DNA of 64,000 nucleotides from Clostridia bacterium (GTDB lineage: Bacteria > Bacillota > Clostridia > Oscillospirales > SIG627): the NCBI GenBank assembly GCA_017507325.1, contig JAFWBD010000042.1, forward strand, positions 1,979-65,978, written 5' to 3'. Below the pieces are notes generated by a model. It was not told where the DNA came from, searched no databases, and saw nothing but the letters and a program-made list of their open reading frames with translations. Positions 15,974 to 38,038 of this stretch are shown here, in pieces. A program made the translations under genes and the position numbers. Positions within the stretch are counted from its first letter, which is position 1. Each line of letters starts with the position of its first letter.

Positions 15974-15999
15974 CGGAAAAAGTAACGTTTGCCGTTCCT

Positions 16000-16981: not shown

Positions 16982-17011
16982 TTGTGTGGCAGTATGCGTT
17001 TGTCATATAAT
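16982..17011 (+). promoter_or_regulatory. Candidate promoter of the portal-capsid module, with an overlapping inverted repeat
   Basis: TTGTGT-18 nt-TATAAT (17006-17011), 35 nt before ATG 17046. Inverted repeat actgcc-N12-ggcagt (16970-16993) overlaps the -35/spacer. Confidence 0.4.
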
Positions 17012-17045
17012 CCACCCCAAGGAAAGCAAGAAGAAAGGAGAGACT

Positions 17046-18617
17046 ATGAAAAAGCAAATGAAGAAGGTCATCACGGAGGATTTTGCTTTGCTGGAAAAGG
17101 GGAGAGAATACAACCGCAGGATCGCCTATTACGATACGGTGAACCGCAACGAAAGGTTTTACCGCGGCGATCAATGGATGGGGGTGCCCTCGGGGGATCT
17201 GCCCACTCCCGTATTCAATCTGTTCAAGCGCGTGATCAATTATTTTGTGTCCACGATCATGAGCCAGAAGATGTCCCTTCACTTTTCGGCGGAGGAGGTC
17301 GGGGGATTTTTAGATCCCGCCAAGCGAGCGCAGACCGATGAGGCCTGCCGACTTCTGACACGCTATCTGAATTACCGTTTGGAGAAGGATAAGGTGGATT
17401 CGATCCTGACCCGCGGTCTGATGGATGCCGCTGTTACGGGGGATATGTTTCTGTACGTGTACTGGGATCCCTCCAAGAGAACCGCCCAAGGCTTTATGGG
17501 GGATTTCGTAACGGAGCTTCTGGATGGTACGCAGGTATTCTTCGGGGACGTGAACACGCCTTCGGTGAAGGATCAGCCCTACATTCTGCTGACGGGAAGG
17601 GAATTGGTATCCAAGCTTCGGCAGGAGGCTCTGCTTTGCGGTGCCTCCCGCGAGGAGGCAGAGAGGATCGTTTCGGATTCCGACGTGGAGGATCAGACGG
17701 GCGATTACGGAAAAAAGGAGCTGGAGGGAACCAAGGCCACCTACGTGATCAAGCTCTTTTTGGAAAACGGAAGCGTTCGCTATCGGAAAAGCTGCCGCAG
17801 TACGGTGATTGTGCCCGAGCGGGATACGGGATTGCAAAGCTATCCCGTGGTTCTGATGAATTGGGAGGGCGTGAAAAATTCCTACCACGGCCAAGGAGCG
17901 GCCACCGCCCTGGCGGACAATCAGCTTTACATCAACAAGGCCTTTGCCATGGTGATGAAGCATATGATGGACGTTTCCTTTTCCAAGGTGATGTACAACG
18001 CCAATCTCATTGATGAATGGACGGGTGAGATTGGGGAGGCTGTTGCGGTAAACGGTCCCGTGGAGAATGCCGCCATCCGAATGGAGCCGGGCAGTATGCA
18101 GGCGGGTTTTTTGGAGGTCATCAATATGACCATGGGTGTCACCAAGGAACTGATGGGCGCCACCGACGCCGCCCTGGGCTCGGTCAATCCCGATAATACC
18201 AGCGCCATCATTGCCCTGCAGCAAAGCTCGGCCGTTCCGCTGGAATTGCAACGGAAGGCGCTGTATCTTGCCGTGGAGCAATTGGGAATGATCTGGCTGG
18301 ACTTTATTTTCCATTATTACGTGCCCGAGCGGGTGATCCTCTTTCGGGAAAAGGGAGAGCTTTTGGGAGGAACCCTTCCTCTCGATCAAATGCAGGACAG
18401 CATCTTTTCCTGTACCCTGCAGGCGGGAGCCTCCACCTATTGGAGCGAGATCGCTCAGGTTGCGACGTTGGATAAACTGCTTTCCTTGGGAATTATCCGC
18501 TTTTCGCAGTACCTGGAGCGCTTGCCCGACGGTTACATTGCCAAGAAGGAGGAGCTTCTGGAAACGGTTCGTGAGGAGGAAAAGGCCAAGCTCGGCCTGA
18601 TAGAGGGTCAGAAATGA
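17046..18617 (+). CDS. Phage portal protein (probable)
   Basis: 523 aa with an AAAGGAG RBS. Sits immediately upstream of scaffold-like and coat genes. N-terminal …NERFYRGDQW… and a size and charge pattern typical of portals. Call rests on recall and synteny only. Confidence 0.65.
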   Translation: MKKQMKKVITEDFALLEKGREYNRRIAYYDTVNRNERFYRGDQWMGVPSGDLPTPVFNLFKRVINYFVSTIMSQKMSLHFSAEEVGGFLDPAKRAQTDEACRLLTRYLNYRLEKDKVDSILTRGLMDAAVTGDMFLYVYWDPSKRTAQGFMGDFVTELLDGTQVFFGDVNTPSVKDQPYILLTGRELVSKLRQEALLCGASREEAERIVSDSDVEDQTGDYGKKELEGTKATYVIKLFLENGSVRYRKSCRSTVIVPERDTGLQSYPVVLMNWEGVKNSYHGQGAATALADNQLYINKAFAMVMKHMMDVSFSKVMYNANLIDEWTGEIGEAVAVNGPVENAAIRMEPGSMQAGFLEVINMTMGVTKELMGATDAALGSVNPDNTSAIIALQQSSAVPLELQRKALYLAVEQLGMIWLDFIFHYYVPERVILFREKGELLGGTLPLDQMQDSIFSCTLQAGASTYWSEIAQVATLDKLLSLGIIRFSQYLERLPDGYIAKKEELLETVREEEKAKLGLIEGQK

Positions 18618-18640
18618 AATTCAAACGCAAGGAGGAAACC

Positions 18641-19081
18641 ATGAAAAAGAAGAAACTGAGCAAATTCAAGGAGGAGTGGACCGAGGAGAAGGACAGCCTT
18701 GAGCCCGAATCCGAAAAAGAAGAGATGGAAGAGAGCCGAAAGGAGCAGAGTGCGGAGGAGATGATGGAGGAGGATATCTCCCTGTTTCGCCGCCTGTTCC
18801 CCGACGTTTCCTCGGACAAGATTCCCGAGGAGGTATGGAAGAGAGTGGAGGCCGGGGAAAGCCTTGCCGCCGCTTACGCTCTGTATTCCGTTCAAAAAAT
18901 GAGAGAGGAAGAGGCCATTGAGAAGGTGAATGCCGAAAATGAAAAAAAGGCGCCGCCCCGCATCCGTCACGACGGAGCGGATAAGGTCTATTTTTCTCCC
19001 GAGGCCGTCAAGGCCATGTCCCGCAGCGAAATCAAGAAAAATTACGACGAGATCTTAGCTTCCATGGATAATTGGAACTGA
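18641..19081 (+). CDS. Phage scaffolding-like protein
   Basis: 146 aa, highly charged and helical (E/K-rich), located between portal and coat. Perfect AAGGAGG RBS 6 nt before ATG 18641; an alternative ATG at 18614 overlaps the portal stop. Confidence 0.5.
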   Translation: MKKKKLSKFKEEWTEEKDSLEPESEKEEMEESRKEQSAEEMMEEDISLFRRLFPDVSSDKIPEEVWKRVEAGESLAAAYALYSVQKMREEEAIEKVNAENEKKAPPRIRHDGADKVYFSPEAVKAMSRSEIKKNYDEILASMDNWN

Positions 19082-19101
19082 TCCGAGAAAGGAAAACGAA
19101 A

Positions 19102-19944
19102 ATGGCTATTGCAAACTTTATTCCCGCTCTGTGGAGCGAAACCCTTTATTCCGAATTGGAAAAGGATTACGTGGGAGTTCGCCTTTGCTCCCGTGAATTT
19201 GAAGGCGAGATCAAGGGGGAGGGTGACCGTGTGAAGATCTGCGGCATCGGCCCCGTGACGGTATTCGATTACCGAAAGAACCAGAATATGCCCGCGGCAC
19301 AGACCCTGACCGATCAGCAGCGCACGCTGATCATCGATCAGATCAAGGGCTTTAACTTCTGTCTGGATTCCGTGGACGTGGCTCAGTCCAAGAAGACGCT
19401 GATGCAGGCCGCGATGAAGGAGGCCTCCAACGCCCTTTCCGACGTGGCGGACAAATACGTGTACTCTCTTTATGACAGCGCGGTCAAATCCGTCACCAAC
19501 GACTACGTAACGGAGAACAACATTCTGCACACCCTGGCGGATGCCCGCCGCATTCTGATGGAGCACAACGTGCCCAATTCCACCAGAATCTCTTTGGAGA
19601 TTCCCCCTGCCATCGAGCAGAAGCTGGTGCTCTCGAAGGTGATGAACGCCACCGATAACACCGAGGTGCTGGGGCGCGGCTATATCGGAACCTTTATGGG
19701 CTTTGATATTTACGTGACCAACAACATCACCCCCGATGAAAACGGATGCTACCGCTGTTTTGCCAGAACGGGCAGAGCCGTGGCCTTTGCCGAGCAGCTT
19801 TCCGCCGTGAAGGCCTACGAGCCCGAATTGCGCCACGGAGATGCGGTCAAGGGACTTCATCTGTACGGTGCCAAGATCATTTACCCCAATGAATTGGTCT
19901 ATTTGAATCTGACTCCCGCCACGGACGACGAGTCGGAGGAATAA
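19102..19944 (+). CDS. Phage major capsid protein, P22-coat-like family
   Basis: 280 aa. The N-terminus MAIANFIPALWSE… matches the conserved FIPE(L/V)WS start I recall for P22_CoatProtein-family capsid proteins. Position after the scaffold gene fits. Confidence 0.7.
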   Translation: MAIANFIPALWSETLYSELEKDYVGVRLCSREFEGEIKGEGDRVKICGIGPVTVFDYRKNQNMPAAQTLTDQQRTLIIDQIKGFNFCLDSVDVAQSKKTLMQAAMKEASNALSDVADKYVYSLYDSAVKSVTNDYVTENNILHTLADARRILMEHNVPNSTRISLEIPPAIEQKLVLSKVMNATDNTEVLGRGYIGTFMGFDIYVTNNITPDENGCYRCFARTGRAVAFAEQLSAVKAYEPELRHGDAVKGLHLYGAKIIYPNELVYLNLTPATDDESEE

Positions 19945-19968
19945 GACCGATCGGCAAAGGAGAGGAAA

Positions 19969-20352
19969 ATGACCACAGCACGTGAAATTTTTCAGAGAAG
20001 TCTTGCCCTTTTGGGGCAGGAACCGGGTGAAAATACGGAAGCCTTCGAAAGAAGAGCCCCGAGGATCCTGAACCTCCTTCTTGCCGAGCTGGTGGAGTTG
20101 GATTATTGGCTGAAGGGAGAAAAAATGCCCGATACCGTATCGGTCCCCTCGGTGGAGACGCTGGAGGATCCCTTGGAATTGGACGAGAGCATCGAATGGA
20201 TGCTTTTGCCCTTGGGTCTGGCGGCCCTTCTGATCCAGGAGGAGGAGGGAGCCCGCGGGAGCTTTTTCCTTCAGCTGTATGAAAACGAGCGTGAAACCCT
20301 GCGGCGACGCCGCCGCAGGGGCAGACGCCACAAAATTCTGCGAAGCTTTTAG
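19969..20352 (+). CDS. Small phage-module protein in the head-completion/adaptor position; function unknown
   Basis: 127 aa, acidic body with an arginine-rich tail (RRRRRRGRRHK). Position corresponds to gp4 in the P22 gene order. Confidence 0.4.
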   Translation: MTTAREIFQRSLALLGQEPGENTEAFERRAPRILNLLLAELVELDYWLKGEKMPDTVSVPSVETLEDPLELDESIEWMLLPLGLAALLIQEEEGARGSFFLQLYENERETLRRRRRRGRRHKILRSF

Positions 20353-20363
20353 GAGGAGATCGT

Positions 20364-22853
20364 ATGGCAAAGAATTTTACGTTTCGCATGGATCGCTTCG
20401 GCACGTATTGCCCCACCGAAAAGCGGGATCTGTATGCGGATCCCGCCAAAAGCCCCGATACCGTCAATTTTACCGTTTCCAAGGACGGCTTTTTGAAGAA
20501 GAGAGAGGGCTATTCGGTTTTGGCAAGGCCGAACGGAAAGATCCGCGCCATCGGGGTGGAAAATTTAGGCGGAAGGGAATATTTCCTTGCCGTGATCGCT
20601 TCTTCCTTATACGTTTCCGAGAGGGGCTTTGACAGTCTTCGGGCGGTATCGGGTACGGTGACGGGAGAGGGAAGGGTTCAGTTTTATTCCTTTTACGATG
20701 GGATCTATCTGATGACGGGGGAAGAGATTCTGTGCTTTAACGGAACGGATCTTGAGATCCTGACACCCCATGTCCCTTTGGTGATGATCTCTACAGACCC
20801 TTACGGGGAAGGAATTCTTTATGAGGAGCCCAATCTTTTGACCAACCGTGTGCGCCAAAGCTTTTCTCCCGATGGAGAGAGTCGGCATTTTTATCCCGTT
20901 CTGCCCGATATTCAATCGGTGGAATGGGTAAAGATCGGCGGAGAAACGGTTCCGACGGAGGAATACTACTGGGACGGAATGAACGGCTGTCTGGTATTTT
21001 TAACGGAGCCCGATCCCGGGACGGATACCATGGAGGTGCAAATGATACGCCGAGACAAGGCCGCACCGGATCGCATTCAAAAATGCCGTTTTGCTTGCTT
21101 TTTCGGGGGAGCCAACGATACCCGAGCCTTTTTATACGGCAATCCCGATACCCCCGCCATCCGCTATCACAGCGGGATGGTGGAGGGAAAGCCCGCCATG
21201 AATTACTTTCCCGAGACCGCCTATTCCTTGGTGGGGGGCGGAAGTACCGTTACGGCTGTGCTCCGTCACTACGACCGTCAGCTGATCTTTACGGAGAACG
21301 CCGCCTATTATTCCTACCTGGAATACTTAACGGGAGAAAACGGAAAGCTGATCGCCGCCTTTCCCGTTTTGCCCCTTTCGGACGATCGGGGGAACGTGCC
21401 CGAGGGGCAGGCGATCCTGGCAGAGAATACCCCTTATACCTTATCGGAAACGGGGCTTTACCGCTGGGTTTCCACCAGCATCCGCGATGAGAGAAACGCT
21501 CGCTGCGTTTCGGATCCCATTGCGAAGGCTCTGCAGAAGGAAAACTGCAGGGAGGCGATCTTGTTTTACCGCAAGGCGGAATCGGAGCTTTTGATCTCCT
21601 TCGGAACCACCCTCTACGTGTACCGCGAGCGGCAGGATCTGTTTTGCCGCTACGAGGTGCCGGATCTTTGCGGATTTGCCGAATGGGAAAACAAGCTGTA
21701 TTTCTTCACCGACAGCAGCATCTGTTTGGTGGGAGGGGAGAGCGATGCGGGAGCGGCTGTTTCGGCCCACTGGGAATCGGGGCTGATGGATTTCGGCTCT
21801 GCGGCCGCAAGCAAAAACCTCTTTTGGCTGAATCTTTTGGGGGAGAGCGAGGAGGATATGGCGGTGAAGATCACCCTTTTGGATGAAAAGGACACCGTGC
21901 GGGCGGAAAAAAGCATCCTCCTAAAGGGCGGAGTGCATTTTTCATCTGCTGCTTTGCGCCTTCCTCTCAGAAGGATTCGCCTTTTGAGGCTTCGTTGGAG
22001 CTTTCCTCCAAGGCCGCCCTCAGCATACGGGAGATCCGAGCCGAGGGACGGATCACGGATAAAAAGGAGTAAAAAAATGGCTATGAAGAATATAACGCAA
22101 AATCTCTTGAAGCGCTTGGAGGAGGGGACGGCGGAGATCTATTCCCGCTACCGCTCCCGCTTGAAGGAGACGCAAAAAAAGTACGACGTCGCACTGGAGG
22201 AATTGGAAGACGATCACCGCAGGGCGATGAACGCCGCATCGGCACAAGGGAAAATCGAAAGAAAGAATACCTTGGAAAAAATGGCGGATGCGGGATACGT
22301 GGGCGGCGGTGAAACGGTGCAGGTAAGCCTTGCCGCCGGTGCCGCCCGTGCCGCCGATCTGCGGGCTCTATCGGGTCAGCAGGCAAAAAATGCGGCACAA
22401 TTACAGGTGGAGAAGATCCGCGAGGAGCAGGATCTTTTGGAGACGGCCGACCGCGAGGCGGCTGAGCTGAAGGGAGACACCCTTTCGGCGATCCGCGAGC
22501 AGGAGAATCTGGATCGGGAATTCGAGGCGGAGGAGAATCAGCGGAAATTTGAAAACGATTTGGCCCTGAAGGAATGGGAATGGAAGAAAAGCGAAGCCGC
22601 TTCGGCCGAAAAAGAAAAGAACCCCACCAAGCAGGAGGAGGGGCTGGTTCCGAAAATCGAGCCTTACGCTTATCTGGAGGCGATTGTGGAGAAAAACACC
22701 GTTTACTATCCTCAGAAGGGCTATAAAACCCTGGATCGCCGCGGAATTTTGCAGGCCATCAACGATATTGTGCGGGATACCAACGTTTCCCGCAGCTATC
22801 GGTACGAATTGTATTTGTATGCCAAGAGTATGGGATATCTGAATATCGAATGA
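20364..22853 (+). CDS. Large phage-type structural ORF (829 aa as written). It is probably two genes fused by a 1-nt frameshift: a ~569-aa beta-rich protein (20364-~22072) and a 258-aa coiled-coil protein (22077-22853).
   Basis: Residues encoded at ~21955-22075 are R-rich junk in frame 0. The -1 frame there reads …SSQKDSPFEASLELSSKAALSIREIRAEGRITDKKE-TAA (stop 22070-22072), followed by AAAAAGGAG…ATG at 22077. Confidence 0.5.
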   Translation: MAKNFTFRMDRFGTYCPTEKRDLYADPAKSPDTVNFTVSKDGFLKKREGYSVLARPNGKIRAIGVENLGGREYFLAVIASSLYVSERGFDSLRAVSGTVTGEGRVQFYSFYDGIYLMTGEEILCFNGTDLEILTPHVPLVMISTDPYGEGILYEEPNLLTNRVRQSFSPDGESRHFYPVLPDIQSVEWVKIGGETVPTEEYYWDGMNGCLVFLTEPDPGTDTMEVQMIRRDKAAPDRIQKCRFACFFGGANDTRAFLYGNPDTPAIRYHSGMVEGKPAMNYFPETAYSLVGGGSTVTAVLRHYDRQLIFTENAAYYSYLEYLTGENGKLIAAFPVLPLSDDRGNVPEGQAILAENTPYTLSETGLYRWVSTSIRDERNARCVSDPIAKALQKENCREAILFYRKAESELLISFGTTLYVYRERQDLFCRYEVPDLCGFAEWENKLYFFTDSSICLVGGESDAGAAVSAHWESGLMDFGSAAASKNLFWLNLLGESEEDMAVKITLLDEKDTVRAEKSILLKGGVHFSSAALRLPLRRIRLLRLRWSFPPRPPSAYGRSEPRDGSRIKRSKKMAMKNITQNLLKRLEEGTAEIYSRYRSRLKETQKKYDVALEELEDDHRRAMNAASAQGKIERKNTLEKMADAGYVGGGETVQVSLAAGAARAADLRALSGQQAKNAAQLQVEKIREEQDLLETADREAAELKGDTLSAIREQENLDREFEAEENQRKFENDLALKEWEWKKSEAASAEKEKNPTKQEEGLVPKIEPYAYLEAIVEKNTVYYPQKGYKTLDRRGILQAINDIVRDTNVSRSYRYELYLYAKSMGYLNIE

Positions 22854-22877
22854 TTTTTTCGGCTCTGCAAGACGGTA

Positions 22878-22906
22878 TTGCCATTTGAAAGAAAAAATGA
22901 TATAAT
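22878..22906 (+). promoter_or_regulatory. Sigma-A-type promoter of the rnfC/D-like pair
   Basis: TTGCCA-17 nt-TATAAT. Confidence 0.6.
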
Positions 22907-22934
22907 ACTGTCATTAAATAAGGGAGGTCGCCTT

Positions 22935-24266
22935 GTGGGGAGCTTCAAAAGAGGAATCGAAACGGAATACGTCGGTGCTGCCAAAAATGCGGGCATAGAA
23001 AAAATGCCCGCCACCGGCTACGTGGTTTTGCCCTTTGATAGGCCCAATGGGCAGGAGTCGTTATGCGTGGCGGCGGGAAGCCGCGTCAAAAAAGGCGAAT
23101 TGCTGGTGCGGGGTGATCTTTTGCACGAGCCCGTTTTTTCATCGGTATCGGGAAGCGTGGTTTCCGTGGGAGAGGTGATGACCCTGCGCGGTAAGGCGCA
23201 GGCTGTGACGGTGGAAAACGATTTCAAGGAGGAATGGCACCCCTCGGTACAGCCCTTTTCCAAGCCCTTGCTTCGGGCCGCTCCCGAGGAGATTCGGGAA
23301 TTTTTGAAGAATAAGGGAATCGAAAATTTGGACGGTGAGGGGCTTTCTCTGGAACGAAAGCTTTCCTTGGCCGCGGGCAAGGCAAAAGAAGTCATCGTGA
23401 ACTGCCTGGAATGCGAGCCGTACCTTCACGGGGTTCACAGCCTTCTGATCCATGAAGCCGCTGCCGTGGCGGGCGGCGCCCGTATTCTGGCGGCGGCCCT
23501 GGGCGTCAAGAGGATCTCATTTGTGATGGATCTGAAGCGGAGAGACGAGGCGGTTTCCCTTCGGAATCAGCTGAAAGGGAAAAACCTTTCGGCGCGCTTC
23601 CGATTTCTTTCGGCCAAATACCCTCAGCAGGAGGAGCGGCAGATGATCCTGGCGGTCAAGCATCGGGAGATTCCCTTATCGGTTGCTCCCGAGCGCTTGG
23701 GAATTGCATCGTTTGGGGTCCATACGGTGTATGCGGTGTATCAGGCCTTTGTGACGGGGATGCCGCAGGTGGAGCGTGTGGTGACGGTAGAGGGAGACTG
23801 TGTTTTGCAGCCCTCCAATCTGAGGGTTCCCTTGGGAGCGCCTCTTTCGGAGCTGATCTCCCGTTGCGGCGGATTTTCCACCTCTCCGGGAAGAGTGCTC
23901 ATCGGCGGGCCCTTTTCGGGAAAAGAAGAAAAGAATTTGCAAATTCCCGTAACGGGAGAGATCAAGGCGATTCTTGCCTTTGCCGAGAAGGAAACGGAGA
24001 CGGCGGCAAGCTGTGTTCGTTGCGGGCGCTGTGCCTTGGTTTGCCCCCAAAGGCTGACCCCCACCTCTCTGGCCCGTCTGTACCGCAAAAACAAGATCGG
24101 AGGGCGGGATCGGAGATTTCTTTCGGATTGCAGAGAATGCGGATGCTGCTCTGCGGTCTGCCCGGTGAAGATCCCGCTTTTAAAGAGGATCCGCGCGGGC
24201 AAGGAAGCATTTTCGGAAAAGAAATATGAATCGGAAAGAGAGAAGCGTAATGGAAACCCGACTTAG
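22935..24266 (+). CDS. RnfC-like iron-sulfur protein (RnfC_N barrel, degenerate NuoF-like nucleotide loop, two 4Fe-4S motifs)
   Basis: GTG 22935 follows an AGGGAGG RBS by 7 nt. Motifs include …VNCLECEPYL…, CVRCGRCALVCP and CRECGCCSAVCP. The canonical GxGGAGFP loop reads NLDGEGLS. Confidence 0.75.
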   Translation: MGSFKRGIETEYVGAAKNAGIEKMPATGYVVLPFDRPNGQESLCVAAGSRVKKGELLVRGDLLHEPVFSSVSGSVVSVGEVMTLRGKAQAVTVENDFKEEWHPSVQPFSKPLLRAAPEEIREFLKNKGIENLDGEGLSLERKLSLAAGKAKEVIVNCLECEPYLHGVHSLLIHEAAAVAGGARILAAALGVKRISFVMDLKRRDEAVSLRNQLKGKNLSARFRFLSAKYPQQEERQMILAVKHREIPLSVAPERLGIASFGVHTVYAVYQAFVTGMPQVERVVTVEGDCVLQPSNLRVPLGAPLSELISRCGGFSTSPGRVLIGGPFSGKEEKNLQIPVTGEIKAILAFAEKETETAASCVRCGRCALVCPQRLTPTSLARLYRKNKIGGRDRRFLSDCRECGCCSAVCPVKIPLLKRIRAGKEAFSEKKYESEREKRNGNPT

Positions 24267-25296: not shown

Positions 25297-25320
25297 CGGC
25301 AAGTGAAAACGGAAAACCGA

Positions 25321-25358
25321 CCGATGCTTCGATGAGGCATGGGTCGGTTTTTTTGAGA
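25321..25358 (+). terminator. Rho-independent terminator after the rnfD-like gene
   Basis: Stem ccgaccgatgc/gcatgggtcgg (one mismatch) followed by T7. Confidence 0.6.
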
Positions 25359-25364
25359 ATTTTC

Positions 25365-26507: not shown

Positions 26508-26536
26508 GAATATGTTCCTTATCGTTCAATGTGATT

Positions 26537-26563: not shown

Positions 26564-26571
26564 AGAGGGGT

Positions 26572-29066
<2,495 letters not shown>

Positions 29067-29067
29067 A

Positions 29068-30117: not shown

Positions 30118-30136
30118 TTTCTTCACCACCTCACAT

Positions 30137-30163
30137 TTAGCACTCTTAACGGGTGAGTGCTAA
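30137..30163 (-). promoter_or_regulatory. CIRCE operator (HrcA binding site)
   Basis: Perfect consensus TTAGCACTC-N9-GAGTGCTAA. Confidence 0.95.
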
Positions 30164-30175
30164 CCCCTTGCTCAT

Positions 30176-30204
30176 ACTTTATCACGAATGGAAGAGATTG
30201 TCAA
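30176..30204 (-). promoter_or_regulatory. Sigma-A promoter of the hrcA operon
   Basis: Minus strand reads TTGACA-17 nt-TAAAGT, directly upstream of CIRCE. Confidence 0.7.
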
Positions 30205-30334
30205 GCCCCTCACAAAAAGTTAACAAATCTTTCTTTGGTTATGATTCCCTTTTTCTTCCTTTTTATCACGAAACGGGGCCGTTTTTTTCTTTTTTTCGGA
30301 TGATGCGGGTATAATAGAAATCGGGAGGAAGAAA

Positions 30335-31786
30335 ATGAAGAAATGCATTGGTATTGTTTTGATCGCGGGAATCCTTTTTTTCTGTGGAATTTTCCCGCAG
30401 GCTGCTTCTTCGGGGGGGTGTGAAGAATGTGCGGCCTTGGAGGCGGCGGGCTTTCCCGCGGGCTATCGGGAGGCTCTGTGCGCCGTTCAAAAGAAGCATC
30501 CCGAGTGGCGTTTCGTACCTCTTTCGGTGACGGCGCTTTCGGACGTGCGGGGAGAAAATTACAGCTTCGGGTACGTTTTGGATCAGGAATTGCGCACGCC
30601 TTCGCGAAATCTGGTTCCCTCGGGGGAGGTGTACCGCCCGTACCGGGCGGAGGGAGGTGAATGCTGCGACAGCGGTTATTTTCCCGCCTCCCGCGAGGCG
30701 GTGGCGTATTTTGTGGATCCGCGGCCGCATCTTTCCGAAAAGGGAATCTTTCAGTTTTTGGATCTTTCGAATTGTGCGGACGTTTCGGTGCGGGACGTGG
30801 AACGGGCATTGGAGAACACGGATTATTCCCGGAAAGAAACGGCCGAAGCAATCCTTTCCTTGGGGAAGAAGCACGGGATCAATCCCTTGGGAATCGCGGT
30901 GCGACTGCGAAGGGAGCAGGGAAGGGAGGGAAACTGTCTTCTTTGGGGGAAGAGCGGAACGGTTTTGTGGAATTGGTATCAAAACGGAACCCAAACGGAG
31001 GCAGGCCGACAGATTCTGGCTCCCGCCGAAGGGCATTCGGAAAAGGAGCTGCTTTCCCTTGACGGCTTTTTCAATCCCTTGAACGTTGCCGCCTCGGGGA
31101 CGGGCGCCTTCCGCATCTATGAAGCGGGGGCAAGATATGCCGCGGCCCGGGGATGGGATTCCTTTGACAAGGGCCTTGAGGGCGGCATCCGAAAAATAGC
31201 GGAGGAATACGTTCTCCGTTTTCAGAATACCCCGTATTTACAAAAATGGAACGTGGATATCCGCTCCTGCGGGGAAAGCGGAGCCTCCCGAAATTTTTGG
31301 GGGCAATATATGCAGAACGTCGGCGGAGCGAAACGGGAGGGAGAAATGCTGTACGATTGCTACCTCCAAACGGGCTTGCTTTCCTGCCCTTTGGTGTTTT
31401 GTATTCCCGTTTATGACGCAATGCCCCCCTTCCCGTCCCCGGATCCCGCCGAAGGGAAATGTCCTCTTTTTTCGGCCGAGGAAAGGACTCTCTGCCAAAG
31501 GGGGAGCCTTGTGACGGAGGATCACGAAGAAAATATGAGTGAAAAATCCGTTGATGCGGCACAGGCCCCCGAGAGACAAATCGGAGCGAAGGAGAATCCC
31601 GCTCAAAGAGAACGGGAGAAAAGGAGCGTGCCTCTTGTCTTGGCGCTGGGGGGTCTTTTTCTCTTGGCAAAGGGCTTCTTGCTTTGTAAAAAGCCCCGTT
31701 TTCTCGAAAAAAAGAGAAAAATTTTGCAAAAAAAGGTAGAAAAAAATCAAAAAAAGTCTCCCAAAATTTTGATTTTTGTGCTATAA
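30335..31786 (+). CDS. Secreted, C-terminally membrane-anchored cell-wall hydrolase-like protein (glucosaminidase/muramidase-type domain, tentative)
   Basis: N-terminal signal peptide (MKKCIGIVLIAGILFFCG…) and a C-terminal TM helix (VPLVLALGGLFLLAKGFLL) followed by a K-rich tail. The central region resembles LytD-type glucosaminidase domains by recall only. Confidence 0.55.
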   Translation: MKKCIGIVLIAGILFFCGIFPQAASSGGCEECAALEAAGFPAGYREALCAVQKKHPEWRFVPLSVTALSDVRGENYSFGYVLDQELRTPSRNLVPSGEVYRPYRAEGGECCDSGYFPASREAVAYFVDPRPHLSEKGIFQFLDLSNCADVSVRDVERALENTDYSRKETAEAILSLGKKHGINPLGIAVRLRREQGREGNCLLWGKSGTVLWNWYQNGTQTEAGRQILAPAEGHSEKELLSLDGFFNPLNVAASGTGAFRIYEAGARYAAARGWDSFDKGLEGGIRKIAEEYVLRFQNTPYLQKWNVDIRSCGESGASRNFWGQYMQNVGGAKREGEMLYDCYLQTGLLSCPLVFCIPVYDAMPPFPSPDPAEGKCPLFSAEERTLCQRGSLVTEDHEENMSEKSVDAAQAPERQIGAKENPAQREREKRSVPLVLALGGLFLLAKGFLLCKKPRFLEKKRKILQKKVEKNQKKSPKILIFVL

Positions 31787-31842
31787 TAAGGGTAGAAATC
31801 TTGATGACACGATCGTTTACTTTAGAGAAAGAGAGCAAAGAT

Positions 31843-32355
31843 ATGTTCCGAGTGGGAGAGATTCTCCGATACGGGCAGGCAGGCGTTTGCCGCGTGGAGG
31901 AGATAAAGATGATGGATGCCGGGGGCGGAGAGCAGGAGTATTTCGTGTTGAAGCCGCTGTTTAAAAACGGCGCGATGCTGTTTGTGCCAAGCTCAAACGA
32001 GGGCCTTGTGGGCCGTATGTGTCCCTTGCTGACACCCGAAGAGATTGAAGCGATCCAAGCGGAGATCTCCCGAAGACCAGCGGAATGGATTCGGGATTTT
32101 CGCCGCCGCAGCGAAGCCTTCAAGAAGGCGCTTGCCTCGTCGGATCGGCGGGATGCGCTGTTTTTGATGAAGTGTATCTATGCTCACAAGAGAAAGCTGC
32201 GTGCCGAGGGAAAGGGAATTCACACCACCGACGATTATTTCCTCAAGGATGCGGAGCAGCTGATCTTCAGCGAATTTTCCATGGTACTGGAAAAAAGCGT
32301 CTCTTTGGTGGAAAAGGAGATCCGATCTCTTTTGGGGGAAGAAAGCTCCCTCTGA
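31843..32355 (+). CDS. CarD/CdnL-family RNA-polymerase-binding regulator-like protein
   Basis: N-terminal Tudor-like motif MFRVGEILRYGQAGVCRVEEI…EYFVLKPLF…; about 170 aa. Confidence 0.7.
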   Translation: MFRVGEILRYGQAGVCRVEEIKMMDAGGGEQEYFVLKPLFKNGAMLFVPSSNEGLVGRMCPLLTPEEIEAIQAEISRRPAEWIRDFRRRSEAFKKALASSDRRDALFLMKCIYAHKRKLRAEGKGIHTTDDYFLKDAEQLIFSEFSMVLEKSVSLVEKEIRSLLGEESSL

Positions 32356-32376
32356 TCGATGAACCGAAAGAAAGAA

Positions 32377-32407
32377 CCCCTGCTTTTGCAAAAAGCAGGG
32401 GTTTTTT
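32377..32407. terminator. Bidirectional rho-independent terminator
   Basis: Stem cccctgctttt/aaaagcagggg followed by T6, between convergent genes. Confidence 0.75.
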
Positions 32408-32437
32408 GGTGCGTTGGTTTCTTTGCGGTGAAAAGTC

Positions 32438-33022
32438 TCAGAGGGGAGGAAGCATCAAGGGCTGGAGCTGGTCTCCCTCCATTGCCAAACGAAGGGCGGC
32501 AGAAACGAGGGAAAAATCGCTTTGAAGGGAGGCGGGCTTTTCCGCCGAATCGTCCTGACGGAAGGGAACGAAATAATAGCCCTTTTTGTCCATCAGCGTG
32601 CCGATGCTGTGGGCGGAGCCCGAGAGGGCATCGTTGGTGGAAAGAGCGATCAGAACGCCGCGGCCCGTTCTGCGGTGGGACTTGACGGCCATGGTAACGG
32701 CGGTATCGGTGATGCCGCAGGCAAGCTTGGAAAGGGTGTTGCCCGTGCAAGGGCAGACTACCAGAAAATCCAGCATTTTTTTGGGTCCCAGGGGCTCGGC
32801 CCCTACGATGCTGTCGATGGGCTCTCTTTTGCAGATCTCAAGAACGTGCCGCCGCACCTCCTCCTTGGAATGAAAGCGGGTATCGGTTCCCGCCACTCGC
32901 TCGGAGAGGATGGGGAGAATTTCGTAATGGGGTTGTAATTCCTTCATTACGGCAAAGGCCTTGTCTAAGGTGCAGAAGGAGCCGGTTAAGGCAAAGCCGA
33001 TGACTTTTTTCAATGGGTTCAC
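32438..33022 (-). CDS. dpaB: Dipicolinate synthase subunit B (flavoprotein)
   Basis: 194 aa with …IGFALTGSFCT… and …CTGNTLSKLA.GITDT…. Overlaps the dpaA stop. Confidence 0.85.
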   Translation of the reverse strand: MNPLKKVIGFALTGSFCTLDKAFAVMKELQPHYEILPILSERVAGTDTRFHSKEEVRRHVLEICKREPIDSIVGAEPLGPKKMLDFLVVCPCTGNTLSKLACGITDTAVTMAVKSHRRTGRGVLIALSTNDALSGSAHSIGTLMDKKGYYFVPFRQDDSAEKPASLQSDFSLVSAALRLAMEGDQLQPLMLPPL

Positions 33023-33792
33023 TCACTTTCTTCGGAGTCTCGGCAAGGCTCCGTCAGAATTCGGTACAGCGCCTCCGCCTCGGAGGCGGGGGCGTATTGC
33101 CCCGGTAATCCGTGAAGGACGTGAAAATCAATGCCGAGATCTTGCATTTTTTCGGTGGAAAGCCCCGAAAGTCCCGAAGCAATTTGAAAAAATGAGCTTC
33201 CGCTCCGAAGAAGGCGGAGAATCGGATCGGGAAAGATCGGGTCGGGCACGGTGTTCAGGACGGCGTCGAACATAGCGGCCTTGGCATTCCACTCGGGATA
33301 GAGATTGAAGCCGTCCTCGGAGGCTCTTTTCATGGATCCTTCCCGAGAATGGATCCAAACCTCGCTTCCGCACAGCCAAAAGAGCCGCGCCAAGGCGGAG
33401 CCGCAATGGCCGTAGCCGCAAATAAGAATGCACAGATCCGACAGCAATCCGTCGGTTTTTTCGATGACCTGTGCCAGGGTGCCCTCGGCTGTGGCCAAGG
33501 CGTTGCGAAGGCGGTAGGAGGGATCCTTCAGAACGGGGACGAGAAAAAGACTTTTTTCTTTGGCGAGGGAATCCATTGCCTTCGTGGGATTTCCCAGAAG
33601 CACGGTGCTTTGCGGCTGCATTTTGTTCATCAGAGACAGTGTCTTTTCCTCTGTGAAGGAAAAGGGGAGGATCACCGTGCAGGGTTCGGATTCCTCCAAG
33701 CGTCCTTTCAAGATGGGATATCCCTCCCGAATCAGTCTTTCTTCCAAAAGCTCGTAGCGGCGGTCGCGGCCGAAAATACAAATGGGATTCAT
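33019..33792 (-). CDS. dpaA: Dipicolinate synthase subunit A
   Basis: Rossmann-type GYGHCG motif, paired with dpaB. Start at ATG 33792 (MNPICIFG) with an AGGAG RBS 7 nt upstream. Confidence 0.8.
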   Translation of the reverse strand: MNPICIFGRDRRYELLEERLIREGYPILKGRLEESEPCTVILPFSFTEEKTLSLMNKMQPQSTVLLGNPTKAMDSLAKEKSLFLVPVLKDPSYRLRNALATAEGTLAQVIEKTDGLLSDLCILICGYGHCGSALARLFWLCGSEVWIHSREGSMKRASEDGFNLYPEWNAKAAMFDAVLNTVPDPIFPDPILRLLRSGSSFFQIASGLSGLSTEKMQDLGIDFHVLHGLPGQYAPASEAEALYRILTEPCRDSEESE

Positions 33793-33828
33793 ATGATTTC
33801 TCCTGACGTATACCTGTTTTCCACACTG

Positions 33829-33837
33829 TATTCTATG
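33829..33837 (-). promoter_or_regulatory. Possible sigma-K-type -10 element upstream of dpaA
   Basis: Minus strand reads CATAGAATA, matching CATA-N3-TA, 37 nt before the dpaA ATG. The -35 AC is not clearly placed. Confidence 0.3.
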
Positions 33838-33866
33838 ACAAAGCCGATATTTTGCCACGGGGCGCT

Positions 33867-33900
33867 GAAAAAAATCTCCCTCGGGGCGAGCCGAGGGAGA
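33867..33900 (-). terminator. Rho-independent terminator after the 33904-34653 gene
   Basis: 10-bp stem tctccctcgg/ccgagggaga followed by T7 on the minus strand. Confidence 0.7.
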
Positions 33901-33903
33901 AGC

Positions 33904-34653
33904 TTATTTTTCAATGCCGAAATCCTGAAGGGTCAGGGAGGAAAGATCGCTCTCCTCCTCTTCGTCTTCCGCCGAGGGTTCCTCTTCAACGTTTTTTTCG
34001 GGGGGATCGGAGGGAGGGGGAACGGGCCCCGCCAAGCTTCGCAGGATCAGAGAAAGCAGATAGAAAATCTGATAGAGAAAAACGGAAATGGTAAAAAAGC
34101 GATAGTGAAAGCCCGAATGGCCGATGGGAATGATCTGATAAAAATAGTAGGGGGAAAGCTTTTGATCCAAAAGAGCCGAGAGGATCAGAAGAAGAATTTC
34201 CAAAAGCCCGTAGCCTGCGTAAAAATGCAGGGCAAAGGGGCGAATCTCCCGCAAAAAGAAAGAGGCCATGGCAAAAAAGGCACAGAGGAGAATGAAAAAA
34301 TGAGAGATCAAAACGGAGGTATGTACCGTTTCCTCCCCCAGCACGGCGAAAAACTGCAAAAGGGCGTAAAGGGCAAAGGGGAGAGAGCCCAGCGCCGTTC
34401 CCAAAAGCTGAAGGGCCTTCCCGGGACGGGCAAGATACAGAGCGGAGGCGATCACGGAAAAGAAGGGGACCGCCATCCAGACCGTGTCGGAAAAGGCGGT
34501 GAAAAAGCCCTTTTGGGTGGACACGGGAATTTCAAAATAAAAGCGCATTCCGATATCGGAAAACCAGCCCCAGGCAAAAAAGGTGAAAAACAGCATGGCC
34601 GCGGAGGCCAGCAGGGAAAGAACGGTAAAAAGGGTGTAACGCTTGGAATTCAT
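33904..34653 (-). CDS. Polytopic membrane protein of unknown function with a proline- and acid-rich C-terminal tail
   Basis: 249 aa, about 6 hydrophobic helices, tail …PVPPPSDPPEKNVEEEPSAEDEEEESD…. I recognise no family. Confidence 0.6.
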   Translation of the reverse strand: MNSKRYTLFTVLSLLASAAMLFFTFFAWGWFSDIGMRFYFEIPVSTQKGFFTAFSDTVWMAVPFFSVIASALYLARPGKALQLLGTALGSLPFALYALLQFFAVLGEETVHTSVLISHFFILLCAFFAMASFFLREIRPFALHFYAGYGLLEILLLILSALLDQKLSPYYFYQIIPIGHSGFHYRFFTISVFLYQIFYLLSLILRSLAGPVPPPSDPPEKNVEEEPSAEDEEEESDLSSLTLQDFGIEK

Positions 34654-34782
34654 ACGGCATTCACTTCCTCGTTTCTTTTAAATCCAATCCATTATAAAGA
34701 AAAAAACCTTCTCCGTCAAGGGATTGTCATGGCGTGGCAGTGGGGTTTTGTAGTAAAATCTCCAAAAAAAGGAGAAAGAATT

Positions 34783-35184
34783 GTGAAAAAAACAAAACTG
34801 ACGGAAGAAAAGGCAAAAATCCTTCTGCGGCGCTACTTTGAAAGCCGCAAGGTGGAGAAAAGAGATTCGCAGGGGAATCCCATTGTGAACAAAATGGGGG
34901 AGACCGTCCTTGAGGCCCGACCCGCTACGGTAACGGGAATGGTTCTGGCACTGGGGCTTTGCGGTCGGGAGGAATTGGAGGCGATCACAGACAAAAAAAC
35001 AAAAGCACTCATTGACCGAGCGCTTTTGAAGATCGAGGAGGAGGCGGAGGAAAAGCTTTTTTCCAAGGACTGCTTTAACGGGGCCAAGCTGTTTTTGTCG
35101 GTCAATTTTCCCCGTTGGAGCGGGGAGAGCGTTGCGGAAACGGGCACCGCTTCCTTGGGGGTCTGCTCCGTTTGGGCGGAATGA
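34783..35184 (+). CDS. terS: Phage terminase small subunit (gp3-packaging-type), isolated copy
   Basis: 133 aa. GTG 34783 follows an AAAGGAG RBS. Pattern …YFE…PATVTGMVLALGL.GREEL…IDRALLKIEEEAEEKLF…GAKLFLSVNF..W matches the HTH and oligomerisation core I recall for small terminases. Only the 3' end of the 611-aa track ORF is credible. Confidence 0.65.
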   Translation: MKKTKLTEEKAKILLRRYFESRKVEKRDSQGNPIVNKMGETVLEARPATVTGMVLALGLCGREELEAITDKKTKALIDRALLKIEEEAEEKLFSKDCFNGAKLFLSVNFPRWSGESVAETGTASLGVCSVWAE

Positions 35185-35185
35185 A

Positions 35186-35794
35186 TCATTCCACCACCAC
35201 GATCAAGCACCCGCTGTGAACCGTGATGCGGGTGTTTTCGCGGGCCTCGTTGCTGACCCCCAAGGGAAAATCGGGGGTAACGCGGGCACGGTTTACATTG
35301 TATTTGGCACCGCTGACGGAAACCTCGGCTTCGCCGCCTGCGGCAAACAAAGAAAAATATCCATCGGATGCCGCGAGGGTCAGGGTTCCCGCTTCCAGCA
35401 GAAGAACCCGACAGTAGGGGTCCACGATCTCCCCCTCGGCCCCGTGGCTTTTTAAAAAGAACAGGGTTTGCAAATTGGCAAGGGAATGGGAAAATCTCTT
35501 CCCCCCCAGAGCACCGTACAGCCGAAAGCGGCGATAGCCCAAAAAAAGGCCGTGGCGGCAAGCGGCGATCATATCGGTATCGTCCTTTTCGCAGGGGAGA
35601 GACAAAACGGGAAGCGAGGTGGGCAGATACCCGAGAGAATCCCCGTCGCCGATGAAAAGATCGGCCGTTTTTCCCGCACGGCTCAGATATTCAAGCCCCC
35701 CGTCGGCGGCCAGGATCAGATCCGACTCTTTTTTTTCGGGTAAAAGGGCAGGATCGATGCGCCCGGCACCCACAACGTGGCAAACACCCTTCAT
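35186..35794 (-). CDS. thiN: Thiamine diphosphokinase
   Basis: 202 aa with …ILAADGG…FIGDGDS…KDDTDM…, co-operonic with thiT. Confidence 0.85.
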   Translation of the reverse strand: MKGVCHVVGAGRIDPALLPEKKESDLILAADGGLEYLSRAGKTADLFIGDGDSLGYLPTSLPVLSLPCEKDDTDMIAACRHGLFLGYRRFRLYGALGGKRFSHSLANLQTLFFLKSHGAEGEIVDPYCRVLLLEAGTLTLAASDGYFSLFAAGGEAEVSVSGAKYNVNRARVTPDFPLGVSNEARENTRITVHSGCLIVVVE

Positions 35795-36459
35795 TTCCGT
35801 TCCCCTTCCGCTTGAATGAGGGGGATGCGGGAGACAAAGGCGGCCGCCAGCGCGGTCAGAATCATTTCGGGAAGCATATAAAGGCCGTTATAGATCAAGG
35901 AGTACAAAAGGGAAAGAAGAGCGCCCGAGCAATGCTCCATAATCCAGGCGGAAAAGGGAAAGGCGGCGGCAGCGCTTTCCGTGAAAAACCAGCTTGCCCA
36001 TTCTCCGTAAAAAACGGCACCCGAAAGCACGTGGAAGGCATAGGTCAAGCTGAGGGCAAAAAGGCTCCCCTGAACCAGCGCCTTCTTTTTGGGGAAAAGG
36101 CGGCGGAACACGCCTCCCAGCCCCGCGACACCGAAGGCACAAATATAATCCAAAAACAAAATGATCAGCGCGATGCCCGCCCCTCCCATATAGGAATCCG
36201 AGGAGGGCAAAAAGAGAGCGGAGACCGTTTTAAAGCCCACGGCCATTTGCAAAACGGCAAAAATAAGACCGCTTCCCAGACCCCATTTCAGCCCGTAAAG
36301 GTAGGAAATGACGATCAAGGGCAAAAGACCCGCGGGGGTGATGGTACCGCCGAAGGGCAGGTTTAAAAAGGGAATGAATTCCGCCACAAAGGTCAGCGCG
36401 GTGCCCAAGGCAATGAGCATGGCGGAGGTGACCAGCTTTTTGGTTTTGCTTTGCTTCAT
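35791..36459 (-). CDS. thiT: ECF-type thiamine transporter S-component (ThiT-like)
   Basis: About 220-aa, 6-TM protein directly downstream of a TPP riboswitch. Start at ATG 36459 (MKQSKTKK). Confidence 0.75.
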   Translation of the reverse strand: MKQSKTKKLVTSAMLIALGTALTFVAEFIPFLNLPFGGTITPAGLLPLIVISYLYGLKWGLGSGLIFAVLQMAVGFKTVSALFLPSSDSYMGGAGIALIILFLDYICAFGVAGLGGVFRRLFPKKKALVQGSLFALSLTYAFHVLSGAVFYGEWASWFFTESAAAAFPFSAWIMEHCSGALLSLLYSLIYNGLYMLPEMILTALAAAFVSRIPLIQAEGERK

Positions 36460-36524
36460 AAAAGGCTCCCAAATAAAAAATTCACACAGGACGGAGGGCC
36501 TGCGTGAATGTATCTTCGTCAACA

Positions 36525-36605
36525 AAAACTCCCTACGCCGGTATTATCCATCTCAGGTAAAAGGGTTCGCATTCTGATGCGTCTCAGCCGAAGCACCCCT
36601 GTTTT
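36525..36605 (-). promoter_or_regulatory. TPP (THI-box) riboswitch
   Basis: Minus strand reads GGGGTGC…CTGAGA…AACCC…ACCTGAGATGGATAATACCGGCGTAGGGA, the conserved TPP aptamer core. Confidence 0.85.
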
Positions 36606-36627
36606 TTTCCGCTTGTGCGTGGGACTT

Positions 36628-36656
36628 ATTATACGTTTTTTTTTGCAATTTGTCAA
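36628..36656 (-). promoter_or_regulatory. Sigma-A promoter driving the TPP riboswitch-thiT-thiN operon
   Basis: Minus strand reads TTGACA-17 nt-TATAAT. The -35 lies 12 nt from the terL ATG on the other strand. Confidence 0.7.
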
Positions 36657-36667
36657 GAGAGAATCAT

Positions 36668-38038
36668 ATGAATACCGTTGAACGTTTTTTATCCAGTCTG
36701 CACCCTTTTCCGCCCCAGGAGAAATTTTTTTTGGCAAAAGCGCGGCGCATTGCCTACGGCGGTGCGAGAGGGGGCGGCAAGAGCTTTGCCATGCGGGCCA
36801 AATTGGTGCTGCTTGCTTTGCGCTACCCCGGGATCCAGATCCTTCTGTTGCGCCGCACCTTTCCCGAATTGCGGGAGAATCATATCAATCCTCTTCAGCG
36901 CTGGCTGTACGGCTTTGCCCGCTATAAGGATTCCACCAAGGAGTTTTTGTTCCCCTCGGGATCCCGCATCAAATTGGGGTATCTCAGCGAGGAGGGTGAT
37001 ACTCTGCAGTATCAAGGGCAGGCCTACGAGGTCATCGGAATGGAGGAGGCCACCCAATTTTCCGAAAGCCAATACTATGCCATGACGGAATGCTGCCGTC
37101 TGGCAGGACAGCTGAAGGAAAAATTCACCCCGCGGATGTATTTTACCTGCAATCCCGGCGGGGTGGGACACGCTTGGGTGAAAAGGCTGTTTATCGACCG
37201 CCGCTATCGGGAGGGAGAGCGGGAGGAGGATTACGTGTTCATTCCCTCCACGGTGTACGACAACCGCTATCTGATCAGCGAAAATCCCGAATACGTCCGC
37301 AATCTGGAAAGCCTTCCTCCCTTGCGGCGCAGGGCGATGCTGGAGGGGGATTGGGATGCCTACGAGGGACAGTATTTTACGGAATTTGACCGAAAGCGCC
37401 ACGAGATCGAGCCCTTTGCCATCCCCGAGGATTGGCACCGCTTTGCGGCGCTGGATTACGGCCTTGATATGACGGCTTGCCTTTGGTTTGCCTATCCCCC
37501 CGACCGAAGAAGAATCGTGGTATATCGGGAATTGTATTGCCCCGATCTGGTTCTGTCTCAGGCGGCGGAAAAAATTTTGGAGGCCAACCAATCGGATCCC
37601 GTTCGCTATATTGCCGCCTCCCCCGATCTGGCGGGGCGCAGGCAGGAGGGCGGCAAGAGCGGCTTTGATATTTTATCGGCGGCGGGGATGAAAAATCTGA
37701 TCCCTGCGGAAAACGCCAGAATACCCGGTTGGCGAAGGGTGCGGGAATTTTTGCGCGCCTCGGGGGAGGAGGGGGCCTATTTGGGCTTGTTTTCTTCCTG
37801 CCGAAATCTGATCCGCACCCTGCCGCAGCTCCGCTTCGATCCCGTGAAAACCGAGGATGCCGCGCTGACGCCCCACGAATTCACTCACGCCCCCGACGCC
37901 TTGCGCTACGGCCTCTCCTCTCTGCCCTTTTTACCGGGAGAGCCTCTGCGGGAAAAGAAGGTGCGAAAGAGCATTCGGGATGAATTTTTCGGAAAGCGGG
38001 AAGGCGCGGGGGAATATTTCGATTTTTTGAAAAAATGA
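36668..38038 (+). CDS. terL: Phage terminase large subunit, isolated copy
   Basis: Walker A YGGARGGGKSF, Walker B-like …YEVIGMEEAT, C-terminal nuclease-type region (…ALDYGLDMT…), 456 aa. ATG 36668 is preferred over the TTG at 36650. Confidence 0.8.
   Translation: MNTVERFLSSLHPFPPQEKFFLAKARRIAYGGARGGGKSFAMRAKLVLLALRYPGIQILLLRRTFPELRENHINPLQRWLYGFARYKDSTKEFLFPSGSRIKLGYLSEEGDTLQYQGQAYEVIGMEEATQFSESQYYAMTECCRLAGQLKEKFTPRMYFTCNPGGVGHAWVKRLFIDRRYREGEREEDYVFIPSTVYDNRYLISENPEYVRNLESLPPLRRRAMLEGDWDAYEGQYFTEFDRKRHEIEPFAIPEDWHRFAALDYGLDMTACLWFAYPPDRRRIVVYRELYCPDLVLSQAAEKILEANQSDPVRYIAASPDLAGRRQEGGKSGFDILSAAGMKNLIPAENARIPGWRRVREFLRASGEEGAYLGLFSSCRNLIRTLPQLRFDPVKTEDAALTPHEFTHAPDALRYGLSSLPFLPGEPLREKKVRKSIRDEFFGKREGAGEYFDFLKK

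Follow-up and report, generated by a model that had tools for sequence, protein, structure and literature searches.

To our knowledge, few gene transfer agents (GTAs) have been studied experimentally, and most of these are from Alphaproteobacteria. As major movers of DNA in gut Clostridia, GTAs are supported by evidence from 2024–2026 only, and by one gene cluster, FpGTA. This system of Faecalibacterium prausnitzii was shown experimentally to form podovirus-like 40-nm particles that contain 8.4–8.9 kb of host DNA, and it is encoded in two operons (PMC12946183, Nat Commun 2026). GTA-like packaging was also detected in other Oscillospiraceae, for which prophage predictors found no gene cluster (PMC12946183; bioRxiv 10.64898/2026.07.08.737213). 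Here, we describe a 64,000-nucleotide stretch of the genome of a Clostridia bacterium (GenBank assembly GCA_017507325.1, contig JAFWBD010000042.1, positions 1,979–65,978), denoted below as the window, in which phage-type genes are divided into a head/tail island (island 1), a small terminase gene terS (island 2), and a large terminase gene terL (island 3). We lean slightly toward reading these genes as a candidate GTA-like particle system that is divided over several loci, inherited vertically, and co-regulated. New here are a conserved motif of regulatory type and, among relatives, an evolutionary series of layouts from compact to dispersed. A first-pass annotation, made from the letters of the window, had already proposed a domesticated, GTA-like, multi-locus candidate, which was supported by each computational test that was run. 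Its remark that it knew of no such system around the dnaK operon in Clostridia needs correction, as a comparable podovirus-like GTA, FpGTA, has been published for Faecalibacterium in the meantime (PMC12946183).

Comparison with Described Systems

The hosts of FpGTA and of the window are both gut Clostridia of the Oscillospiraceae/Ruminococcaceae group (PMC12946183). The two systems share podovirus-type terS, terL, and portal genes, an HK97-fold capsid, and a P22-gp10-type nozzle, for which PDB entry 8eap was matched in both. They are also alike in occupying more than one locus, in their near-ubiquity within the lineage, in having no integration or replication genes, and in a coiled-coil protein encoded after the nozzle, which is annotated as “TolA-like” in FpGTA. 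The capsid, however, is annotated as N4-gp56 family in FpGTA and belongs to Phage_capsid_4 (PF25209) in the window, where it has no NCBIfam match at E ≤ 0.01. A Prp protease is encoded between portal and capsid in FpGTA, whereas a scaffold-like protein takes this place in the window. Furthermore, a single operon of 10.5 kb spans terS through nozzle in FpGTA, whereas terS, terL, and the head/tail genes of the window form three units separated by host operons. For FpGTA (RCH50844–RCH50852), which was compared by its description, no motif like the conserved one of the window is described.

RcGTA of Alphaproteobacteria likewise consists of domesticated phage genes that are inherited vertically under purifying selection, occupy several loci, and do not transfer themselves. 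Unlike the window, it is siphovirus-like with a long tail, and its 15-kb head–tail cluster keeps terS and terL together. The proteins belong to unrelated lineages, and the hosts are Gram-negative for RcGTA and spore-forming Firmicutes for the window. Control by a dedicated activator (GafA/CtrA) is known for RcGTA, whereas we infer coordinated control for the window. Island 1 follows the P22 gene order 1-8-5-4-10-26 and shares with that module a PF16510 portal and a gp10-fold nozzle. In contrast to P22/Page-like modules, the window contains no ejection-protein, tailspike, lysis, replication, or lysogeny genes, its terminases are detached, and its capsid protein (280 aa) lacks the P22 insertion domain.

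Phage-Type Genes of the Three Islands

Profile and fold searches bore out the first-pass placement of phage-type capsid and packaging genes in three islands among ordinary chromosomal genes. The eight genes are as follows.

17043–18617, + strand: portal protein, 524 aa (PF16510 P22_portal, 5e-15; phrog_156, 7e-31)
18614–19081, + strand: scaffold-like acidic protein, 155 aa, a putative role based on position
19102–19944, + strand: major capsid protein, 280 aa, HK97 fold, Phage_capsid_4 family (PF25209, 5e-11; phrog_267, 1e-38)
19969–20352, + strand: p127, putative head-completion or adaptor protein, from its position
20364–22072, + strand: tail nozzle of P22 gp10 / T7 gp12 type (AlphaFold2 (AF2) model and Foldseek)
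22077–22853, + strand: p248, coiled-coil protein with its own ribosome-binding site and an ATG at 22077
34783–35184, + strand: small terminase subunit terS, 133 aa, GTG start (weak matches to GP3_package, 3e-3, and phrog_606, 1e-3)
36668–38038, + strand: large terminase subunit terL, 456 aa (Terminase_3, 2e-13; Terminase_6N, 2e-12; phrog_979, 6e-47)

All six genes of island 1 lie on the + strand, and its portal and capsid were confirmed by the profile matches listed above. The scaffold-like label of the 155-aa open reading frame (ORF) agrees with its place between portal and capsid, which is kept in 69 loci of relatives, but profile searches found no Pfam or NCBIfam family for it, and its sole profile match was phrog_14606 of unknown function (7e-6). 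The capsid protein is 39–41% identical to the major capsid proteins of Aeribacillus AP45 and C. perfringens phiCP34O. The cultured relatives closest to it are capsids of siphoviruses, encoded in phage genomes of 38–52 kb. The AF2 model of the capsid was poor (predicted local distance difference test (pLDDT) of 60), and its Foldseek matches, which comprise Che8, other HK97-fold capsids, and encapsulins, are taken solely as consistent with the HK97 fold. The nozzle was modeled with a pLDDT of 92.4, and its top Foldseek matches in PDB were podovirus nozzles, namely those of P22 gp10 (8u10_1, 8eap_D), Sf6, Pan3, and Pa223 (E of 1e-11 to 1e-15). A virion protein of the Bacillus podophages Page/Pony, 28% identical, is its only relative in cultured phages.

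The three structural ORFs that had been annotated downstream of the capsid correspond to p127, the nozzle, and p248, but the mechanical 829-aa ORF at 20364–22853 turned out to be nozzle and p248 fused in frame. The fusion results from the loss of 1 nt from the T-run at 21981–21984, as judged from the frame of all relatives, and this loss shifts the last ~29 nozzle codons. When the missing T was restored, a family-normal nozzle C-terminus with a stop at 22070–22072 was obtained. Relatives always keep two genes of ~570 and ~250 aa, and all 90 of the 90 database nozzle homologues are separate proteins of ~570 aa. The p127 gene (127 aa) adjoins the nozzle gene in 61 loci. The p248 protein, in which a variable Glu/Lys/Gln-rich linker is followed by a conserved C-terminal domain, represents a family (c5) present in 37 loci at the island end or near it. 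No profile or PDB match was found for p127, and no family, PDB, or phage match for p248. PDB searches with the two profiles gave chance matches only, and tblastn of both proteins against 50,697 phage records found nothing. Both are tentatively assigned from position alone. Homology of p127 to P22 gp4 and of p248 to P22 gp26 was considered and rejected, as profile–profile comparison gave no similarity.

The lone small terminase of island 2 is supported by its relatives, though its own profile matches are weak. Homologues with 44–64% identity are located upstream of terL in the related loci L008, L044, and L009, and wherever both genes are still adjacent, as in L009 and L010, the terS homologue lies directly upstream of terL. 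The gene beside terL in L010 also matches GP3_package, again weakly, and a PDB sequence search with the terS profile gave chance matches only. For the lone large terminase of island 3, the Terminase_3/6N and phrog_979 matches leave the first assignment unchanged, and full-length homologues at 59–82% identity occur in many Clostridia metagenome-assembled genomes (MAGs). A 249-aa ORF without a Pfam family (33904–34653, − strand) adjoins terS, and this adjacency is kept in L008 and L044. In L009, a large serine recombinase (Resolvase + Recombinase + Zn_ribbon_recom; 11549–12886) is located directly downstream of a terS–terL pair that otherwise lies among host genes.

Selection and Inheritance

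Almost every homologue of the phage-type genes is an intact ORF of normal length, across ~39 species at 62–81% capsid identity. Approximate ratios of nonsynonymous to synonymous substitution (dN/dS) were ~0.10 for the capsid, ~0.13 for the portal, ~0.10 for terL, and 0.29–0.37 for scaffold, p127, nozzle, p248, and terS. The host neighbors lysR, dpaA, dpaB, thiN, and others gave 0.15–0.36, so that purifying selection on the phage-type genes is at least as strong as on flanking host genes. The divergence of portal and nozzle follows that of the flanking host gene (rho of 0.76 and 0.56; Mantel p of 0.0015 and 0.0065, respectively), while the capsid is too conserved in this subset to be informative. 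These data indicate that the phage-type genes have been inherited vertically under purifying selection. The window is even in composition (guanine–cytosine (GC) content of ~0.53), and the earlier impression that the islands resemble their flanks was substantiated by computation: GC, third-position GC (GC3), and synonymous codon use of seven phage-type genes were within |z| < 1.5 of 48 host genes.

These observations bear on whether the islands are a decaying podovirus-type prophage, broken by rearrangements, whose pieces survive by chance or hitch-hiking. Such an origin would suit the frameshifted nozzle, the incompleteness of the set, as the window lacks fibre and lysis genes, and the location of the islands among rearranged host genes. 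Neutral decay, however, would have erased both the ORFs and the non-coding motif that is kept upstream of two separate islands (see below). The ORFs are intact in ~39 species at 62–81% capsid identity, where synonymous sites are saturated, their dN/dS (0.10–0.37) is no higher than that of host neighbors, and the genes are fully ameliorated. Because intact ORFs and low dN/dS coincide with divergence that tracks a host gene, the evidence is strongly against decay, which we consider largely refuted and the least probable of the explanations weighed here. As for an intact or recent prophage, the window has no contiguous block with integrase, att, regulatory, replication, and lysis modules, and its composition is host-like.

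Split and Compact Layouts in Relatives

The capsid family was counted by scanning one genome per GTDB species, and layouts were mapped with the window proteins onto the best 80 loci. The capsid family was found in 404 GTDB species genomes, and the islands are therefore not specific to one strain. More than 1000 database homologues of ~278 aa form a smooth series of 60–83% identity, all from uncultured gut/rumen Clostridia and Oscillospiraceae MAGs; a capsid search of a representative library showed only that the family is large. Every one of the 39 loci whose capsid identity is 62% or more (~39 species) has a split layout, that is, a head/tail island without terminase. At capsid identities of 55% or less, every locus that reaches far enough upstream has terL beside portal or capsid in one compact module. 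These modules consist of 7–13 genes in several orders. The fullest comprises a divergent S24 (LexA/CI-type) repressor, a small zinc-ribbon gene, terS, terL, portal, scaffold, capsid, p127, nozzle, an XhlA-like protein, an ORF of ~100 aa of unknown function, an Amidase_3-LysM endolysin, and a Gly-rich tail-fibre-like protein. The divergent repressor and a 76-aa zinc-ribbon gene lie just upstream of terS in L053 (5454–6507), with homologues in L055, L081, and L085. This repressor suggests SOS-type control in compact relatives, replaced in the split clade. In the scanned flanks of compact modules, which consist of host genes, neither integrase nor replication genes turned up, and the ±10-kb maps of sampled relatives showed no mobility, replication, or lysogeny genes, the one exception being a DnaD-like gene that follows the L048 island.

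The distance between the islands is not fixed. The islands lie 17 kb apart in the window, where they span 21 kb, and ~7 kb apart in L044. On JAFWZW010000010.1, a distance of 86 kb separates capsid from terL. The order in L044 is island 1, dpaB-dpaA, terS, thiN-thiT, and terL, with no rnf/dnaK block. The right side of island 1 is thus not conserved, the window carrying an extra rnf/dnaK block, and the dnaK-operon setting emphasized by the first-pass annotation, which is present in the window, is incidental. The window, L008, and L044 share the thiN-thiT pair between terS and terL. At 13469–16953, the portal island is preceded by a tandem pair of trigger-factor-like paralogues (Trigger_C + FKBP_C) and by a LysR gene in divergent orientation. 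This left flank is kept in ten species of the window's sub-clade, often with three paralogues. The layouts fit a compact-to-dispersed series in which the compact module is the earlier state and the clade of the window is more dispersed; they show as stages a compact module, then a detached terminase, then separated terS and terL.

A compact module was also recognized in GenBank MT836592.1 (9588 bp, from human faeces), which was deposited as “Bacteriophage sp.” It contains terS, terL, portal, scaffold, capsid, two small genes, and nozzle, with no terminal repeat and no other genes. The deposition of such a module under a phage name, the 7–13-gene modules that combine terS, terL, portal, and capsid and in some cases include an S24 repressor and lysis genes, and the large serine recombinase beside terS–terL in L009 would all suit a helper-dependent satellite, resembling capsid-forming phage-inducible chromosomal islands (cf-PICIs), or a mini-phage still moving between cells. 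A cf-PICI also places a small set of capsid and packaging genes in a bacterial chromosome. It is, however, a compact mobile island with an integrase, an AlpA-type regulator, and a primase/replication module and with no tail genes, whereas the window has no integrase, primase/replication gene, AlpA-type regulator, or att repeat, encodes a tail nozzle, and keeps its dispersed genes in synteny with host genes; the distinction from cf-PICIs made at first annotation is upheld. Because the islands occupy separate loci up to 86 kb apart, they cannot be one mobile unit that is excised or packaged as a whole. This distance would exceed any podovirus head of this type, and may be set beside the 38–52 kb of the cultured phage genomes. 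The left flank kept in ten species and the divergence that tracks a host gene argue against movement as well. A motif scan of IMG/VR gave chance matches only and recovered no split-clade island, and just two short distant relatives (49% capsid identity) were found in that database. We consequently regard a satellite or mini-phage as improbable.

A Promoter-Like Motif Shared by Portal and terS

Alignment of upstream regions revealed a motif of 16–18 nt with the consensus TGTCATTG(C/T)GTG(G/T)CAG(TA), followed 13 nt on by TAnAAT. The element is composed of a tandem TGTCA/TGKCA repeat and a −10 box, with no TTGACA at the normal distance from the latter. It occurs twice in the window.

16977–17011, + strand: promoter/operator-like element P1, with motif TGTCATTGTGTGGCAGTA at 16977–16994 and TATAAT at 17006–17011, 32 nt before the portal ATG
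34725–34759, + strand: promoter/operator-like element P2, with motif TGTCATGGCGTGGCAGTG at 34725–34742 and TAAAAT at 34754–34759, 24 nt before the terS GTG

These two matches, against 0.04 expected by chance in 64 kb, lie 49 nt ahead of the portal start and 41 nt ahead of that of terS. Allowing at most 2 mismatches, 34 of the 37 split-clade loci carry the motif ahead of the portal, and it also precedes terS in L008, L044, and L009. Among 41 matches in 1.47 Mb of fetched loci, 38 precede the portal operon or terS in this same position and orientation. No canonical sigma-70 promoter was found on the + strand upstream of portal, terS, or terL. For this reason, and for the missing normal −35 box, the motif may be read from its sequence as a promoter dependent on an activator or an alternative sigma factor. 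Tandem repeats with a 10-bp spacing, as in this motif, are the kind of site bound by OmpR-type regulators. The LysR protein encoded at 16000–16953 was considered as the regulator and rejected, because another gene separates lysR from the portal in L044 and L021.

On the − strand at 36513–36656, a perfect TTGACA-17-TATAAT promoter and the thiamine pyrophosphate (TPP) riboswitch of thiT fill the whole space upstream of terL, so that terL has no visible promoter of its own. A presumed motif copy before terL was discarded, its similarity being weak and its position overlapping the thiT promoter. Compact loci likewise contain no motif copy within 1 kb upstream of terL at up to 2 mismatches.

Metagenome contigs were also scanned for the motif, which yielded mostly unrelated or chance sites, the informative ones being L093, L094, L115, and possibly L107. 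In L093 (894–1697, − strand), the motif precedes a stand-alone gene for a 109-aa holin (phrog_608, 1e-9) and one for a 134-aa membrane protein, with host genes such as a HAD hydrolase on the flanks. This contig comes from the same metagenome as the portal island L094, and its holin locus may represent, in a related organism, a lysis island of the same regulon that stands apart. An extra motif copy in L048, one locus only, stands directly before a gene for a 213-aa DnaD-like winged-helix protein (13794–14495; phrog_2514, 2e-27) right after the head/tail island; this protein could be a regulator or a relic of a replication gene. Seven phage or metagenome contigs with GC of 0.35–0.46 (L095, L097, L099, L101, L103, L105, and L110) carry the 16-nt motif with its −10 box in antisense, ~20 nt (11–65) upstream of an unrelated 544-aa TerL. 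These antisense copies follow the terminator of the preceding gene, and the similarity continues beyond the −10 box (TATAATCGCCTCACAA). Rfam gave no RNA downstream of the motif in the scanned metagenome loci.

Proposed Particle System

For the multi-locus GTA-like system, the following course may be proposed. A Firmicutes podovirus would have been fixed in the chromosome of an ancestor of an uncultured gut/rumen Clostridia clade (Oscillospiraceae-type MAGs). The genes kept would be those that build a head, close it with a short tail, and fill it with DNA, that is, portal, scaffold, capsid, p127, gp10-type nozzle, p248, terS, and terL. Rearrangements of the host genome would then have separated them into distinct transcription units, which a dedicated activator or sigma factor would turn on together. 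Procapsids would assemble on the portal, TerS/TerL would package chromosomal DNA by headful, p127, nozzle, and p248 would close the particle, and lysis genes encoded elsewhere would release it. Co-expression, particle formation, random packaging of host DNA, and transfer are thereby steps that we infer.

Several points weigh against this proposal. The window contains no receptor-binding/fibre, endolysin, or holin gene, and a fibre-like family (c7) and M15/Amidase_3 lysins sit within islands of relatives. The terL gene has no convincing motif copy, and, given the antisense copies before an unrelated TerL, the promoter role of the motif is tentative. The frameshift in the nozzle gene could stem from misassembly or be a true inactivation in this strain; L091, an independent assembly of the same strain, ends before the frameshift site. 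A small head cannot be assumed, given the 38–52 kb of the nearest cultured phages, and the dN/dS values are approximate owing to saturated dS.

All evidence for domestication would fit equally well a selected particle system with another job, such as programmed lysis with release of extracellular DNA, killing of competitors, or decoying of phages, in which the packaging genes are kept for maturation. No fibre or receptor-binding gene was found in the window or in clade-A islands, which suits particles without need to adsorb. However, terS and terL were counted among the most conserved genes of the set (dN/dS of 0.29–0.37 and ~0.10, respectively), indicating that packaging itself is selected, and a tail-fibre-like gene is retained in islands of sister sub-clades. 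FpGTA, the nearest experimental analogue, packages host DNA (PMC12946183). A particle with such another function is hence held to be rather unlikely.

A more specific form of the GTA-like proposal may be put forward tentatively, as a possibility that falls short of being probable. It states that a Page/P22-like podovirus was domesticated long ago and independently into a true multi-locus GTA across an uncultured clade of spore-forming gut/rumen Clostridia, where a dedicated regulator acting on TGTCATTGYGTGKCAG switches a regulon of head/tail operon, terS, lysis cassette, and further loci. If true, the tiny, host-like pieces missed by virus-prediction tools would explain GTA-like packaging in gut Oscillospiraceae without a findable cluster, and the compact-to-dispersed series in ~400 species would be a natural record of a phage turning into a GTA. 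Small, host-like, scattered islands would be expected to escape prophage predictors, with which the outcome of the IMG/VR motif scan is consistent. The GTA-like system would be a second, probably independent, podovirus-derived one, spread across hundreds of uncultured species, and would show why GTA cluster searches based on prophage finders fail in some producers. The short, highly conserved motif could be used to list the regulon in complete genomes and to fish for the regulator.

Chromosomal Context of the Islands

The genes between the islands are ordinary chromosomal ones, as first annotated: rnfC/D, dnaJ-dnaK-grpE-hrcA with a perfect controlling inverted repeat of chaperone expression (CIRCE) at 30137–30163, a carD-like gene, dpaB/dpaA-like genes, and thiN-thiT, which lies on the opposite strand under a TPP riboswitch at 36513–36610. 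The “wall hydrolase” also named there is present as an ORF whose match is weak and covers 45 residues only. Among the called ORFs of the 64 kb, scans detected none that belongs to a family of integrases, recombinases, replication proteins, repressors, holins, or fibres, and no tRNA or att repeat was found in the window, in keeping with the first-pass annotation. The remaining ORFs encode metabolism, transport, and regulators. No Pfam family matches two large ORFs, at 51–1745 (564 aa) and 42362–44590 (742 aa). A response regulator of OmpR type and a histidine kinase are encoded as a pair at 53570–55284 on the − strand.

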